A stretch of 64,000 nt of DNA from a virus: IMG/VR virus record IMGVR_UViG_3300025467_000009, positions 1 to 64,000 of that record; one strand, 5' to 3'. Of this stretch, positions 15,079 to 19,639 are shown piece by piece. The position numbers and the translations under genes were made by a program. The notes under the pieces are model-generated. The model had not been told where the DNA came from and did not search any database. It was given only the letters and a program-made list of their open reading frames with translations. Each line of letters starts with the position of its first letter. Within the stretch, counting starts at the first letter, position 1.

Positions 15079-15369
15079 ATGTCAACTCCACTTAATACAA
15101 CTACCACAAGAGCAACAGGTCGTGCATTTGTTGCTGCAATCATTGGATCTATCCTTGCTTGGGTTGCAACAAAAGTTGGAAAGTTTAATACTGGAACCTT
15201 TGCTACATTGACACCAGTAATCTCTGGTTTGTACTACACAGTAGTCAATGCTTTGGAAAAGAAGTACCCAAAGTTTGGTTGGTTGCTTGGTACACTACCA
15301 CAGCCTAAAGCAAAGCCTGTTGTAACACCACCAGCACCTGCTAAAGCAAAGTCTGCACCGAAGGCATAG
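15079..15369 (+). CDS. Small membrane protein, holin-like
   Basis: Two hydrophobic segments, LEKKYPKFGWLLG, basic Pro/Ala tail. Confidence 0.6.
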   Translation: MSTPLNTTTTRATGRAFVAAIIGSILAWVATKVGKFNTGTFATLTPVISGLYYTVVNALEKKYPKFGWLLGTLPQPKAKPVVTPPAPAKAKSAPKA

Positions 15370-15377
15370 TCCTTCGA

Positions 15378-15451
15378 GGCCTTGTAGCTCAGTTGGTTAG
15401 AGCACTGCCCTGTCACGGCAGTTGTCGTGGGTTCAAGTCCCATCAAGGTCG
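15378..15451 (+). tRNA. tRNA-Asp(GTC)
   Basis: Cloverleaf: acceptor GGCCTTG/CAAGGTC, anticodon arm CTGCC-CTGTCAC-GGCAG, TTCAAGT T-loop; no encoded CCA. Confidence 0.95.
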
Positions 15452-15453
15452 CT

Positions 15454-15741
15454 ATGTTTAATTTTAACTTTAATAGTTTAGACATTACCACAATGCTAGC
15501 GGGAATTGCCGGTATTGGTAATATAATTACAACTATTAACAATCTTAAGCAAGACAAGTATCAATTAGAAAACTTTCTTTATTCTCTAAAGAACTATAAA
15601 AATGAAATTGAAAAATATTTTAAGGATGTTGAGACAGTAGTTAAAGATCCAGATATTATTAAAACTGATATACTAAATAAATTTACTAAAGTTGAAGATG
15701 ATTACAAGAATGTAATATCTAAATTAAGAAGGAAGAAATAA
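15454..15741 (+). CDS. Hypothetical coiled-coil protein with hydrophobic N-terminus
   Basis: ATG 15454 just after the tRNA; the track start at 15427 lies inside the tRNA. Confidence 0.6.
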   Translation: MFNFNFNSLDITTMLAGIAGIGNIITTINNLKQDKYQLENFLYSLKNYKNEIEKYFKDVETVVKDPDIIKTDILNKFTKVEDDYKNVISKLRRKK

Positions 15742-15743
15742 AG

Positions 15744-16322
15744 GTGGACTTAATTCAGTTACTAGAAGAAAATAGATACCTTACTTGGGCGGCAGAACCC
15801 GGTGTAGGAACTGACAAAGGTGGTTACGAAGGTGAACATGACTTTGTTAAAGGATTCTATAATGAAGAGTTTAAAAAATACCAAGACAAAGAAATTAAGT
15901 TACTAGAAATTGGTATCTATGGTGGAGCATCTCTTTCACTATGGAGTAAGTATTTTACTAAGGGTCAGATTACAGGCCTAGACATTGTTGATAACATTAA
16001 TCACAAGTATCGTGGCTTAGATAGAGTAAGGATTGGTATCTGTGATGCTTACAACCCAGATGCTGTAAACCAAATGGGTGAGTATGACATTATTATTGAT
16101 GATGGTCCTCACACTATTGAAACTTTAAAAAAGTGCATTGAATATTACTTGCCTAAACTAAAAGAAGGTGGAGTAATGGTACTAGAAGACGTCCAAGACA
16201 CTAGTTGGTTCCCAATATTGCTAGATGCAACTCCTGATGAGTATAAAGATAAGACAGAGTGTATTGACCTAAGAGAAAATCTTGGTCGATATGATGACTT
16301 ATTGTTTGTAATCAGAAAATAG
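15744..16322 (+). CDS. Class I SAM-dependent (O-)methyltransferase
   Basis: LLEIGIYGGAS, GLDI, DIIIDDGPH, GGVMVLED motifs. Confidence 0.85.
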   Translation: MDLIQLLEENRYLTWAAEPGVGTDKGGYEGEHDFVKGFYNEEFKKYQDKEIKLLEIGIYGGASLSLWSKYFTKGQITGLDIVDNINHKYRGLDRVRIGICDAYNPDAVNQMGEYDIIIDDGPHTIETLKKCIEYYLPKLKEGGVMVLEDVQDTSWFPILLDATPDEYKDKTECIDLRENLGRYDDLLFVIRK

Positions 16323-16328
16323 TTTTAT

Positions 16329-16360
16329 TCCCTGGTAGCTCAATTGGCAGAGCAGCTGAC
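16329..16360 (+). pseudogene. 5' half of an interrupted tRNA (probably originally tRNA-Asn)
   Basis: TCCCTGG-TA-GCTC-AATTGGCA-GAGC-A-GCTGA-C; stops at position 32 of the anticodon loop. Confidence 0.85.
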
Positions 16361-16362
16361 AA

Positions 16363-16390
16363 TGTAACTCAAAGTCAAAGCTACTATAGT
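16363..16390 (+). promoter_or_regulatory. Phage promoter motif TGTAAC-N18-TAGT at the left edge of the insert
   Basis: Same spacing as the other copies; starts 2 nt inside the junction. Confidence 0.6.
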
Positions 16391-16409
16391 GGTATCTACT
16401 ATTTAAGGT

Positions 16410-16901
16410 TTGAGTATGAGATCTACATTATGGGTTTGTGAACTAGAGGGCTGCAATAATACTTTTTTAAGGTACCCTTACCAAATTAGGCAGGGGTCCA
16501 AAAGATACTGTTGTCAAAGCCATTCTACTCTAGGAGTAAAAAGGAATCCAAGTACTCCTAAGATTTATAATTGTAAATGGTGTAACTCTGAAACTAGAAA
16601 TTACTCACTTTCTTGTAATGAGTGCAAAAGGATAGTTGATAGACTAAGACAAAATAATATAAACTATGAATCTCCAGAAATTTATTATAAACTATTAAAA
16701 ATTCAAGATAAAAAGTGTTCTATCTGTAAATCAGAAATAGGTTCTACAGTACATAAAAATTTAAGTATTGACCACGACCATAAAACAGGAAAAATTAGAG
16801 GTTTACTTTGTACTAGTTGTAATAGACAGTTAGGGTGGTACGAAAATAAAAAAGAATTTGTAGAAAAGTATTTACAGAATAATCCTTCCGCTCTAGCATA
16901 A
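16410..16901 (+). CDS. Endonuclease VII-type HNH (putative homing) endonuclease
   Basis: CSIC...LSIDHDHKTGKIRGLLCTSCNRQLG; N-terminal Cys-rich zinc modules. Confidence 0.9.
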   Translation: MSMRSTLWVCELEGCNNTFLRYPYQIRQGSKRYCCQSHSTLGVKRNPSTPKIYNCKWCNSETRNYSLSCNECKRIVDRLRQNNINYESPEIYYKLLKIQDKKCSICKSEIGSTVHKNLSIDHDHKTGKIRGLLCTSCNRQLGWYENKKEFVEKYLQNNPSALA

Positions 16902-16958
16902 TGGCAATGCAACAAGCTGTTAACTTGTCAGATCTGGGTTCGAGTCCCGGGGGCGGAG
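16887..16958 (+). tRNA. tRNA-Asn(GTT), nested in the insert
   Basis: Acceptor TCCGCTC/GGGCGGA, anticodon arm ACAAG-CTGTTAA-CTTGT, TTCGAGT T-loop, G73. Confidence 0.92.
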
Positions 16959-16980
16959 CAATTTCCTCATATGGTAATTC

Positions 16981-17024
16981 GTTTAATCAGCGGGTTCCTG
17001 GTTCGAGTCCAGGCTGGGGAGCCA
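16981..17024 (+). pseudogene. 3' half of the interrupted tRNA
   Basis: (G)TTTAA-TCAGC-GGGTT-CCTGG-TTCGAGT-CCAGG-CTGGGGA-G-CCA; pairs with the 16329-16360 half. Confidence 0.85.
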
Positions 17025-17025
17025 C

Positions 17026-17096
17026 TCCGAGGTGGTGTAATGGCAGCACAGGAGACTTTGAATCTCTTAGTCTTGGTTCGAGTCCAGGCTTCGGAA
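17026..17096 (+). tRNA. tRNA-Gln(TTG)
   Basis: Acceptor TCCGAGG/CTTCGGA, anticodon arm GGAGA-CTTTGAA-TCTCT, TTCGAGT T-loop. Confidence 0.92.
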
Positions 17097-17212
17097 CTAT
17101 TAATTCTTAAAAAATCTGGAAAAGAAACATTTAAAACAATCTGTTTCTTAAACTTAGTATGTGTATAGTTCAGCGTCCTCATACCGAGGACAGTACAGGA
17201 GCCAGACCCAAT

Positions 17213-19639
17213 ATGACATCCGTCTTTGATTTTGATGATTCAATTAATACTGTCTACAATGCTAAGACAGCCGGAAAGAATCTAGTAACCGCTAAGCATG
17301 AGGTTCTAACAAAGGCGGGAGATTTTCTTTTTCTTGCCCACTCTGATAAAGAATTTGCACTTCGTTGCCAAATGATGGAAGCAGATATTGAGAGTGCAGC
17401 TCGCCGTAAGATGGCAACTGTAAGTGATAGCAAGTTTAAACTAGTAAGAGCACTTCACGAAGAGTGGAAGATTCGCCACGCCAATTGCTCTCAGTGCAAT
17501 GTAGCTGGTAATTTAAAAGTATCTAGTATTGAAGAATTAGCAACAGAACTTCCAGAGCATCGTTTTTCTGAGGACCGCCCTGGTGTAGAAAGTTATTCAT
17601 CTCGTACCTATAGATTGCATGAACCTATTGGTAAAGTAACCCATATTGGTACGCTAACATATACTGCAGGAGATGGGAGAACTGCAGTTCGTGGTCACGC
17701 TAAGACGGGACCAAATGAAAACTTTTATCCACTTAATGATGCAGTGGTTAATGAAGTAGAGTTAAGCCACCACCATTTTAATAGTGATGAAGCCCATGAA
17801 GATGCTCTTCGTACAGCTATTAATGCTACCAAGAGATATTCTGTATGTTCTTCTCCTGGTTGCAATAATGATGTACAAGAAAGCCACAGTGACCGATGTG
17901 CTGAACATGGGCGTACTGCCTCTAAAACTGATAATTTAAAAGAATCTAGTCTTAAGACTGCTAACTTTAGTGGTAAGTGTGGCTGGTTTGGGGATCTTGG
18001 TGAAGGTGAAGAATGTTTAAAACCGACTGACTCAAGTAACTATGTAACTTTCCCAGACACTGCAAATAACCCTGATTATGAAAATAACCACATTTGCCCA
18101 GGTTGCAAGTCTGAGTTAGGTATTCTTAACTGCCCAAATTGTGGTAGTGGTAGAGCAGAAATGCACTCTAGTCGTGGAGGACCAGCACCTATTAGGTGTG
18201 AAGATTGCAAAACTATATTTGGACACAGTCCCCTTGGTGGTGAGTTCATCCCAAGAAAGTCTTCTAAAACTGTAGAAGCACACGCTGGTAAAAAAGACAC
18301 CAAGTGTGATGAGTGTGGTGCAACACTTCACGAGGGTGAAAGAGCAGATGATGTTCGTGGTCACCTTGACATTTGTTCTAAGCACTTGAAGAGAAAGGGT
18401 TCAATTCAAGAAAAGATTGCAGGACTAAAAGTTAGACTTGGTTTTGCTATGCACAATGATGCAGTACCAGGTGCTACTTCTACTACAAGAGTTTCAAGTG
18501 GACTTGGGGCTGATACTGCTAAAGCACTTGCAGCTAAATATGCAGATAGAAGAGCAGACCGCCCAGAAATGCAAGATGAAGCAAAAGCAGGCCGTTGGGC
18601 AATGATTACAAAGCATGACTCTTCTGGTAATGTAATTGATGCTACTTTGGGTCGTATTGGTGGTTCACAACTTGGTGGAGATGCAGAAACATCACCATTG
18701 ATTTGCACTGGTCACACCCACCACGGTAGTCCAGGTTGCACTCACTCACCAGATGATGCTTTTGGTGGCCGTCACATTGGTATTCAAGAAACAGCAGCAA
18801 TGAGTGTTGATGGAAGTCTTTATCCAAAACTTAGTGGAAGAAAAGAAGGTTCTACTTTTGCTGCAAGTCACAGAGTTCACATTCTACCTCAAGAAGATCA
18901 CGACAAGATTGAAACTGTAATGAATCAAATTGCAGAAAAAGGTGTGCCAGAACTAGGTATTCCTGCTTTTAAGAGAGAAGAAGAAGGTCGTGGAAAGCCT
19001 ATCGAAACTTTTGAAAGAGGACGTGAATCTGCACAATCTGGTTCAGGTATGAATACTGAAATGGGAGCTAGTCACGGTGTTGGTAAGGTTAGTAACTTTA
19101 CAATTTGGCCTTCAACTCCAGACTTTGGTCACTTTGAAAATGAAGTAGCAAGAAACCGTGGTAAGGGTGAAAACGTTAAGGAAATCCTAGAAAACGGACC
19201 TCGTGACTTAACAGGTTCAGAAAAGACAAACCCTAACTACGCTAAAGTAGTTCCAGGCCAAGAAGGAAAAGCCGGTAGTGGTCGTGTACTTCCTGTTGCT
19301 ACAATGGCACCTATGTACAATGCTACTGATGCACAAAAAGGTATGACAGGTGGATTAGCTGATGGAACTTCTGCAGGAAATGGTGTAACCGCAAGACTAC
19401 GCCCTGTTGCATGGGGTAATGAAAGTGATGCACCTACCTTTAGTTTCCTTAAGGGTGTAGGCAAGATAAAGGCAACTGGTGAAGCACTTCGCCAAAAGCT
19501 AGCAGGCTTTGAAGCAGACAGACAATCAAGAGTCGGTGCTGAAAAAATTGAAAGAGCCAAGTCATCACCTTCACCTAAGGCACCTACAAAAAATCAAGTT
19601 GGTGCAGACATTGTTAATAGGCTATTGGGTAAAGAATAG
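17213..19639 (+). CDS. Large multi-module Cys/His-rich protein, possible head polyprotein
   Basis: AGGAG upstream of ATG 17213; several CxxC modules separated by KVSS/RTAS/KTA/RKSS/KIA. Confidence 0.75.
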   Translation: MTSVFDFDDSINTVYNAKTAGKNLVTAKHEVLTKAGDFLFLAHSDKEFALRCQMMEADIESAARRKMATVSDSKFKLVRALHEEWKIRHANCSQCNVAGNLKVSSIEELATELPEHRFSEDRPGVESYSSRTYRLHEPIGKVTHIGTLTYTAGDGRTAVRGHAKTGPNENFYPLNDAVVNEVELSHHHFNSDEAHEDALRTAINATKRYSVCSSPGCNNDVQESHSDRCAEHGRTASKTDNLKESSLKTANFSGKCGWFGDLGEGEECLKPTDSSNYVTFPDTANNPDYENNHICPGCKSELGILNCPNCGSGRAEMHSSRGGPAPIRCEDCKTIFGHSPLGGEFIPRKSSKTVEAHAGKKDTKCDECGATLHEGERADDVRGHLDICSKHLKRKGSIQEKIAGLKVRLGFAMHNDAVPGATSTTRVSSGLGADTAKALAAKYADRRADRPEMQDEAKAGRWAMITKHDSSGNVIDATLGRIGGSQLGGDAETSPLICTGHTHHGSPGCTHSPDDAFGGRHIGIQETAAMSVDGSLYPKLSGRKEGSTFAASHRVHILPQEDHDKIETVMNQIAEKGVPELGIPAFKREEEGRGKPIETFERGRESAQSGSGMNTEMGASHGVGKVSNFTIWPSTPDFGHFENEVARNRGKGENVKEILENGPRDLTGSEKTNPNYAKVVPGQEGKAGSGRVLPVATMAPMYNATDAQKGMTGGLADGTSAGNGVTARLRPVAWGNESDAPTFSFLKGVGKIKATGEALRQKLAGFEADRQSRVGAEKIERAKSSPSPKAPTKNQVGADIVNRLLGKE

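Follow-up and report, generated by a model that had tools for sequence, protein, structure and literature searches.

We analyzed a 64,000-nucleotide stretch of viral DNA, called here the window, which makes up the first 64 kb of the 132,935-bp IMG/VR virus record IMGVR_UViG_3300025467_000009 (estimated completeness, 84%). The window contains a phage tRNA-Asn gene that is present in two pieces, and between these pieces lies a cassette of about 0.62 kb that opens the gene in its anticodon loop. The cassette consists of a leader, an endonuclease VII (EndoVII)-type gene, a complete second tRNA-Asn(GTT) gene, and a spacer. In this report, we designate the resident tRNA-Asn allele as A and the nested cargo tRNA-Asn(GTT) as B, and we use L-numbers for related contigs and loci. 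The locus comprises, in order, a methyltransferase-like gene, the 5' piece of the tRNA, the leader, the nuclease open reading frame (ORF), B, the spacer, the 3' piece of the tRNA, and a tRNA-Gln. The only tRNAs called at the locus by ARAGORN and Rfam are the nested tRNA-Asn, the tRNA-Gln, and an upstream tRNA-Asp. Positions of the features are collected in Table 1.

Table 1. Features of the interrupted tRNA-Asn locus and of related loci. Positions are those of the record named in the second column.
Feature	Record	Positions	Strand	Basis or remarks
Left remnant of A (last 3 nt probable)	window	16329..16363	+	32/32 to L008 allele positions 1-32; L093/L099 keep ...CTGTTAAT before the cassette
Cassette 5' untranslated stretch (leader), 52 nt	window	16364..16415	+	40-45/52 aligned with L093, L099; AAGG 8 nt before ATG
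Endonuclease VII/HNH-superfamily homing-type ORF, 161 aa	window	16416..16901	+	PF02945, E 3.3e-20
Cargo tRNA-Asn(GTT), B	window	16887..16959	+	ARAGORN; Rfam RF00005, 59.4 bits
Conserved spacer after B, 23 nt, with TCCTCATATGGTA	window	16960..16982	+	common to L011, L014, L093, L095, L096, L098, L099
Right remnant of A	window	16983..17024	+	40/40 to L008 allele; positions 35-73 plus encoded CCA
Intact A, tRNA-Asn(GTT)	L008	2863-2936		anticodon loop CTGTTAA
EndoVII nuclease present	window, L093, L099			nucleases 69-71% identical in protein
HNH nuclease present	L011, L092, L094, L097			unrelated HNH in the same slot; PHROG 2255, E 5e-20; no Pfam match
Nuclease gene lost	L014, L035, L095, L096, L098, L100, L102
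A variant TCAGC/CCTGG	window, L093, L099
A variant TCGCT/ATAGG	L098			equals the intact allele of L045 and L065
A variant TCAGC/ATAGG	L014			97.5% to the L073 allele
Gln nest	L074; L076	4976-5834; 4965-5823		tRNA-Gln positions 1-25, 225-aa HNH ORF and second tRNA-Gln, positions 36-72
Ile nest	L008, also L006/L064	2994-3300 (L008)		truncated EndoVII ORF (80 aa; PF02945, E 1.9e-10), then tRNA-Ile(TAT)
Pro nest (probable)	L078	4399-5020		22-nt tRNA-Pro-like 5' piece, full-length homologue of the window enzyme (38%), tRNA-Pro(TGG)
Overlap of nuclease ORF and cargo tRNA	window	16887-16901
Overlap of nuclease ORF and cargo tRNA	L011	8123-8137
Overlap of nuclease ORF and cargo tRNA	L074	5730-5744
Overlap of nuclease ORF and cargo tRNA	L078	4932-4949
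Methyltransferase-like gene, upstream neighbor	window	end at 16322		Pfam Methyltransf_24
tRNA-Gln, downstream neighbor	window	17026-17097

To identify the uninterrupted gene, we scanned IMG/VR with patterns made from each half and thereby found contigs in which both halves are contiguous. Against the intact allele of L008, blastn-short aligns the left piece with positions 1-32 and the right piece (window 16983-17022) with positions 35-74, in both cases without a mismatch. A preliminary description of the window had proposed that the two halves belong to one tRNA, and their identity to a single intact tRNA-Asn(GTT) bears this out. The coordinates given there for the 5' piece (16329-16360) also stand, but the 3' piece had been started at 16981, and its homologous part begins 2 nt later. 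The 32-nt left piece contains the 5' strand of the acceptor stem, the D arm, the 5' strand of the anticodon stem, and C32. The right piece contains the end of the anticodon loop, the 3' strand of the anticodon stem, the variable loop, the T arm, the 3' strand of the acceptor stem, and G73, and it ends with G-CCA at 17021-17024. If the gene were simply split, T33 and G34 of A would be the bases missing from the window. The bases that follow the left piece (AAT, 16361-16363) are probably A positions 37-39, which would have remained after a 4-nt deletion of TGTT in the window. We count them as remnant because two metagenome contigs with the same cassette, L093 and L099, show an older left junction after A position 39 (...CTGTTAAT|GTAAC). 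No further tRNA fragments occur anywhere in the 132,935-bp genome beyond the A pieces.

The empty allele that had been predicted from the window was recovered letter for letter in the related contigs L008, L006, and L005, and a metagenome run also contains it, as a joint that restores the missing TG (contig X20). With L010 and L012 as additional empty-site records, and with the window, L093, and L099 as filled ones, the site exhibits a presence/absence polymorphism. The sites in L008, L011, and the window are orthologous, since they have flanking genes in common, namely, an upstream gene for a small membrane protein and a downstream gene whose product begins with MTSxFDxDDS. L011, which is filled by a cassette with a different nuclease (HNH type), is identical to the empty L008 at 357/418 positions upstream and at 90/90 downstream. 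We also looked for an arms-race signal in the anticodon stem of A, and rejected it: among 13 A-family alleles, this stem occurs in 6 variants, compared with 5-7 for the acceptor stem and 4 for the T stem, and so the anticodon stem carries no special signal.

The preliminary description stated that the insert contains a complete tRNA-Asn(GTT) unlike A in sequence, and both ARAGORN and Rfam agree. The Rfam score of B compares with a gathering threshold of 29 bits and covers model positions 1-71. Four of the five anticodon-stem pairs of B differ from those of A. B is the sole tRNA-Asn called in the whole record. Although the DNA of the nuclease genes is no more than 70-78% identical in the window, L093, and L099, the B sequences of these records agree at 72-73 of 73 positions. 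A compensatory change in the T stem (G-C to T-A) distinguishes the versions of the window and L011. The suggestion that an isoacceptor offsets the damage to A is thus supported both by the status of B as the only tRNA-Asn of the record and by its conservation next to diverged nuclease genes.

As to the donor of B, we found no B-bearing record outside the context of A, except L102, where nothing of A is left. An 18-nt word in the D arm of B does not identify a donor, because it is common to many unrelated phage tRNAs. Several unrelated phage tRNAs with the D-arm word TAGCATAATGGCAATGCA (in L018, L021, L025, L027, and L030) have extra sequence between the anticodon and T arms, and in two cases, L022 and L030, ARAGORN reports a gene of the tRNA-Pyl(CTA) type.

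The assignment of the ORF to endonuclease VII, made in the preliminary description, was confirmed by several matches. The Pfam family Endonuclease_7 (PF02945) matches residues 83-156 with 72.2 bits, compared with a cut-off of 23.6, and PHROG 307, annotated as endonuclease VII, matches with an E value of 4.7e-22. Matches in the PDB include Hpy99I (E 2e-7) and chains of T4 endonuclease VII (E 5e-6). Full-length homologues with the same length of 161 aa are 70-81% identical to the window enzyme. Residues D119, H120, D121, H122, C101, C104, C132, C135, and N136 are invariant across 11 aligned homologues, and we take them to have catalytic and zinc-binding roles. The ratio of nonsynonymous to synonymous change (dN/dS) is 0.08-0.11 for EndoVII pairs, at a proportion of synonymous differences (pS) of 0.62-0.73, and 0.06-0.08 for pairs of the HNH genes that occupy the same slot in other records. 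These nuclease genes are old and are under purifying selection. The final 15 nt of the window ORF, including its stop codon, are located inside B, and an alternative TTG start is listed at 16410. A phage promoter had also been proposed within the insert, but this proposal was not supported: a sigma-70 scan found no site on the + strand in 16361-16415, a 22-mer in this stretch is unique in the window, and its "ACTATAG" stretch is not conserved in L093 or L099.

An alternative explanation is a true intron or a processed split gene, in which the pieces are joined after transcription by a ribozyme, or by tRNA-processing enzymes that act on the nested tRNA and then an RNA ligase, perhaps to give a UUU anticodon. 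In favor of this explanation, the nuclease gene is much less conserved than the pieces, G73-CCA is retained in the 3' piece, and Devoto et al. 2019 (PMC6784885) take tRNA-in-tRNA inserts of Lak phages as introns. However, covariance-model searches with cmscan over 15200-17400, with permissive filters and E values up to 10, returned three tRNAs and chance matches and no group I, group II, or other intron family, although a core interrupted by an ORF (0.5 kb) could escape such a search. ARAGORN, when introns of up to 1000 nt were allowed, did not call the split gene. When the pieces were joined in silico, ARAGORN folded a cloverleaf at essentially every junction, and the canonical 76-nt join had the anticodon TTT. 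Direct rejoining gives the loop CGTTTAA, which lacks U33, just as had been read initially. The missing anticodon bases argue also against an intron or split tRNA of the archaeal bulge-helix-bulge (BHB) type. In L099, the left stem strand GCGCA cannot pair with the right strand TCAGC, and other relatives lose part or all of the pieces yet keep B, which alone supplies tRNA-Asn. The absence of an intron model, the unrestorable loop, the unpaired stem of L099, the erosion of the pieces, and B as the sole tRNA-Asn together indicate that the A pieces are not exons, and we consider splicing or ligation of the pieces highly improbable. These findings support the original view that invasion occurred at the anticodon without splicing, and the comparative data contradict the ligated UUU-anticodon tRNA that had been offered as its alternative. 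We infer from these comparisons that the two pieces are scars and homology arms.

A wider set of relatives was assembled by a scan with the downstream protein, which yielded 44 syntenic viral loci (several of them duplicates of one sequence), and by a metagenome scan with the pattern of B, which yielded 11 more loci. B is present in 14 distinct records (the window, L011, L014, L035, L092-L100, and L102). The right remnant of A is found in 13 of these, L102 keeping nothing of A, and a left remnant of at least 19 nt is found in 8. Half of the 14 records have a nuclease ORF, which is of the EndoVII type in 3 and of the HNH type in 4. When the 44 syntenic loci and the window are taken together, B occurs in 4 of the 45 and is always nested. 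Another intact tRNA-Asn occurs in 32, a B-like gene without detected remnants in 2, and no tRNA-Asn is present within the covered stretch in the other 7. With regard to cultured relatives, blastn of 15700-17700 against 50,697 phage records returned tRNA-sized matches, one 133-nt match to Prevotella phage Lak-C1, and no close relative. A search based on the methyltransferase neighbor gave 3 distant loci, none with tRNAs.

Stages of decay are visible among the relatives: the nuclease gene is lost, the left remnant is lost, and the right remnant is shortened or lost. Just upstream of B, 10-12 nt in L095 and L096 are still similar to the end of the EndoVII ORF, and in L035, the HNH gene was deleted between two similar words, AATTGGCAGA and AATGGTAGA. 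The remnants are trimmed in L092, L097, L035, and L014 and are gone in L102, such that 3 to 50 nt, or all, have been lost while B stays.

Junctions were compared by cassette type. In EndoVII-type records, the left junction of L093 and L099 follows A positions 1-39 (...GCTGACTGTTAAT|GTAAC...), and the window has the same junction minus TGTT. The right junction is identical in all such records and in their nuclease-less derivatives: the spacer ends with TATGGTAA and 4-6 variable bases, and A resumes at position 34/35 with (G)TTAATC. In HNH-type records, L092 and L097 retain A up to position 26 on the left and from about position 45 on the right. The left piece of L011 extends to position 23, with three bases changed, and its right piece begins at 27, whereas that of L035 begins at 52. 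With respect to the spacer itself, the first 6 bases of TCCTCATATGGTA (16966-16978) can pair with the 3' acceptor strand of the remnant, and in L011, the spacer and the remnant read like a tRNA-Asn without a D arm.

Evidence for mobility comes from the sequences that adjoin the cassette. The same B and spacer, 100% or nearly 100% identical to those of the window, precede three variants of A that differ right beside the junction (Table 1). All three have their right junction at the same place, just before TTAATC. Among EndoVII cassettes, the flanks are identical at 33-37/39 positions of the left A piece and 35-36/36 of the right, and the spacers of the window, L093, and L099 at 21-22/23-24, with the last few bases differing among contigs. 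L093 and L099 are identical at 296/300 positions upstream and at only 367/471 in the nuclease gene, and therefore the history of their cassettes differs from that of the backbone. Neutral flanks as old as the nuclease genes should be heavily diverged. The flanks are too similar for this age, which points to repeated entry into fresh A alleles, or to exchange between filled alleles, as the simplest reading of these comparisons.

Because tRNA genes are short repeats, and because many related phages are present in the samples, an assembler might in principle have joined two phage strains at a repeated tRNA sequence. The spikes in read depth over both pieces would fit such a chimera. The stretch occurs in 24 freshwater metagenome runs, which appear to come from a time series or a sampling campaign, with no RNA run listed among them, and Logan contigs of four runs were examined. 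Contigs X16 and X17 cover 16200-17021 and X20 covers 16331-17012; these single contigs bridge both junctions and come from three runs that are not flagged as possible sources of the record. L093 and L099, whose nuclease genes are diverged, have this layout as well. The refutation by chimeric reads that the preliminary description had envisaged thus did not materialize, and we assign this explanation a nearly negligible probability. Filled and intact alleles co-occur in the same runs. The intact alleles comprise the exact form with TG restored (X20), a form with the stem ACGCA/TGCGT (all four runs), and a further variant (X24).

The same design is seen for other isotypes. A library of tRNAs from the related loci was blasted back on these loci, and revealed fragments beside complete tRNAs of the same isotype. 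In the Gln nest, for which L056 provides the intact reference allele, the nuclease matches PHROG 10822 (E 2e-55), is 99.6% identical between L074 and L076, and represents a third nuclease family. The tail of the Ile nest corresponds to the last 30 nt of a tRNA-Ile that is intact in L011, and the L008 locus looks like a decaying Ile version of the cassette. The ends of the L078 insert resemble those of the Asn cassette: its leader start, ATGTAATTCA, has the motif ATGTAAYTCA in common with the window, and TATGGTAGG follows the cargo. A search for an intact reference allele or a right remnant of this Pro nest found neither; the nest is probably analogous to the Asn nest. Wherever both remnant and cargo could be typed, their isotypes match (Asn with two nuclease families, Gln, Ile, and Pro-like), a check that the preliminary description had called for. 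In L157 and Lak-C1, a nuclease gene is directly followed by a tRNA and no remnant was seen, and in L042, an HNH-like ORF precedes a tRNA-Ile, again with no remnants.

The insertion, its boundaries, the empty allele, the recurrence in different A alleles, and the status of B as sole tRNA-Asn are observed directly. As an explanation, we think it likely that the resident phage tRNA-Asn was opened in its anticodon loop by a homing cassette that carries an EndoVII-type gene and a foreign tRNA-Asn(GTT). In this model, the enzyme would recognize the anticodon-arm region of A and cut intact A alleles in or near it. Repair of the break would copy the cassette from a filled allele, with the A remnants and the further flanks providing homology. 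A filled allele would be immune because its site is split, and B would escape cutting because of the four anticodon-stem pairs in which it differs from A. B would take over tRNA-Asn decoding, so that the insertion would cost the phage little. The nuclease gene could later decay and leave B as the new resident tRNA-Asn.

Several points weigh against this model. Cutting of intact A, resistance of B, and homing itself are steps that we infer. The A pieces and the spacer may be so highly conserved because they have a function, through selection on the flanks. The insertion is not clean, in that about 5-6 nt of A (GTTAAT/TTAAT) are duplicated on both sides in L093 and L099. The junctions also differ by type (39 and 34-35 for EndoVII versus 26 and 27 for HNH). 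Since two unrelated nuclease families share B and the spacer, an extra step, such as swapping of nuclease genes, is needed. Among empty-site relatives that keep this gene order, the nearest one, L005, is identical at no more than 279/401 positions upstream. In the four metagenome runs, the backbone of the window (upstream, 16200-16328) was seen only in filled form, and the intact alleles there sit in other phage backbones, as judged by the loose ends of the contigs. In L103 (1400-2030), an EndoVII homologue follows a tRNA-like 5' fragment (GCCCCTGTAACTCAGTTGGTAGAGTG) with no overlapping cargo tRNA, the next tRNA being 83 nt downstream. Finally, the sequence between B and the right piece is similar to the 5' end of A (TCCCTTGTATGGTA in L096 versus TCCCTGGTA...TGGCA in A). 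Therefore, the right piece could be a whole copy of A with an internal deletion, which a history of duplication would explain better than a simple insertion. As a separate observation on L103, a stretch with GGGACTTTTAATCC after the homologue is possibly a degraded anticodon arm with a UUU anticodon.

The appearance of the spacer as a degraded 5' end of A favors a one-off rearrangement, in which local duplication, or illegitimate recombination in a recombination-prone tRNA cluster, put a free-standing nuclease gene and a foreign tRNA-Asn between two copies of A that later decayed. The arrangement would then have spread by descent and ordinary recombination, and the nuclease would target something else or nothing. 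The overlap of the left and right pieces in L093 and L099, which reaches 13 nt if the left piece of L093 is combined with the right piece of L011, points in the same direction. So do nuclease-free tRNA fragments that adjoin tRNAs of the same isotype in this clade (Gln fragments in L042, L043/44/47, and L062, and a further case in L051/53), and so does a wider scan of the EndoVII family, in which 80 of 567 relatives were kept and a tRNA lies within 1.5 kb in only 3 of the 80. In a first nuclease-based scan, which gave 11 loci, the 10 that were run through ARAGORN had no tRNA, and a tblastn search of cultured phages returned 579 records, none of which reached 60% identity, with no link to a tRNA among the 40 matches listed. 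On the other side, the same cassette and junction occur in three A alleles that differ beside the junction, nuclease genes saturated at synonymous sites stand between near-identical flanks, isotype-matched nesting involves three nuclease families, and purifying selection on the nuclease genes is strong. We regard a one-off rearrangement as unlikely.

We class the cassette with the homing endonucleases of phage tRNA clusters, as a variant with a nested layout. Full-text literature searches, in which subscription journals were outside the coverage, gave no account of a tRNA gene that contains a cassette of a nuclease gene and an isoacceptor tRNA. Of the known systems, T4 SegB comes closest (PMC2330249). 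It is a free-standing GIY-YIG homing endonuclease in the tRNA cluster that cuts tRNA genes of phages without segB, with a preferred T2L site in tRNA-Asn, and that spreads with neighboring tRNA genes and displaces tRNA markers of the recipient. In T6, according to another report, a tRNA-plus-segB unit is amplified, and microhomology exists between the 3' end of the nuclease gene and the 5' end of the tRNA (PMC13096335). The window resembles the SegB system in having a nuclease gene in a phage tRNA cluster, in the link to tRNA-Asn, and in the same logic. In contrast, SegB is a GIY-YIG enzyme that is encoded between tRNA genes and whose cleavage has been demonstrated, whereas the enzymes here are of the EndoVII and HNH types and their cleavage is predicted. 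The window cassette is also not a free-standing gene between genes, but lies inside its target tRNA gene, leaves both target pieces as flanks, and carries a replacement of the same isotype.

Three other systems invite comparison, and a fourth offers the nearest published observation. In phage Aeh1, the nrdA/mobE arrangement, reportedly termed "genes in pieces" by Friedrich and colleagues in 2007, is said to involve a homing nuclease that, without an intron or intein, splits a protein gene whose pieces are functional and reassemble. As in the window, a host gene is interrupted by the gene of an intronless homing nuclease, and the host manages without splicing; the pieces of nrdA work, whereas those in the window appear to be dead and the cargo copy supplies the function. 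Temperate phages and islands integrate into tRNA genes by means of an integrase and restore the gene through a copied 3' end. They likewise target a tRNA gene and keep tRNA function, whereas the window cassette has no integrase and brings a complete, different gene. Group I introns in anticodon loops of bacterial tRNAs, as reviewed in PMC3984707, can contain an endonuclease ORF, and empty and filled alleles coexist. Insertion in the anticodon loop, the endonuclease ORF, and the two kinds of allele are features in common with the window. In contrast to these introns, no ribozyme core was detected in the window, its loop cannot be restored, relatives have eroded versions of the would-be exons, and the insert includes an entire second tRNA. 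The nearest published observation, a tRNA within a phage tRNA, is that of "enigmatic" tRNA introns in Lak megaphages, one of which is predicted to encode a tRNA, and which are present or absent between strains (PMC6784885). Compared by this description, they differ in being presented as introns, without a nuclease or a replacement reading. In Lak-C1 itself (L183, record 456534-459666), we observed a 214-aa EndoVII-like ORF (995-1717, genetic code 15) that ends 3 nt before a tRNA-Asp in a tRNA cluster, and a 133-nt part of its DNA matches window 16751-16883 with 76% identity.

The matching nests raise the possibility of a general class, in which a nuclease welded to an isotype-matched, cut-resistant tRNA homes into, kills, and replaces the resident gene. 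Within one freshwater phage clade, three or more nuclease families would have this arrangement, for tRNA-Asn, -Gln, -Ile, and -Pro, and it would drive rapid tRNA turnover and allele diversification. The conserved flanks, the terminal motifs of the cassette (ATGTAAYTCA at its start and TATGGTA at its end), and the stop codon inside the tRNA would all be functional. We advance this generalization tentatively, as somewhat less probable than not. If it is true, the flanks and ends could be homology arms, and the stop codon inside the tRNA could act as a switch between RNase P and translation that limits nuclease expression. The tRNA sets of phages vary strongly between close relatives, and the cause is debated, with codon use on one side and escape from host tRNA-cutting defenses on the other. 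The locus provides sequence-level evidence for a third driver, namely, selfish nuclease cassettes that would overwrite a tRNA gene and then decay, and one phage clade displays all stages from the empty site to clean tRNA replacement. For annotation, this means that phage tRNA halves or "introns" may be scars and that the nested tRNA may be the working gene. Should the enzymes cut at the insertion points, they would constitute small sequence-specific nucleases for defined tRNA-gene sequences, and the combination of a nuclease and an immune replacement gene would be a natural cut-and-replace design.

Some minor observations remain. Nuclease ORFs of three families end 15-18 nt inside the cargo tRNA, with the stop codon in the D loop (Table 1), and therefore an RNase P cut at the 5' end of the tRNA would leave the mRNA without its stop codon. 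By contrast, the nuclease stop codon of L092 and L097 lies just 5' of the tRNA. The large ORFs of the window are all on one strand, and its GC content is about 40%. Beyond the window, at 121782-121871 of the record (minus strand), ARAGORN reports a 90-nt tRNA, to which it gives no type, with a 4-base anticodon (TACA).

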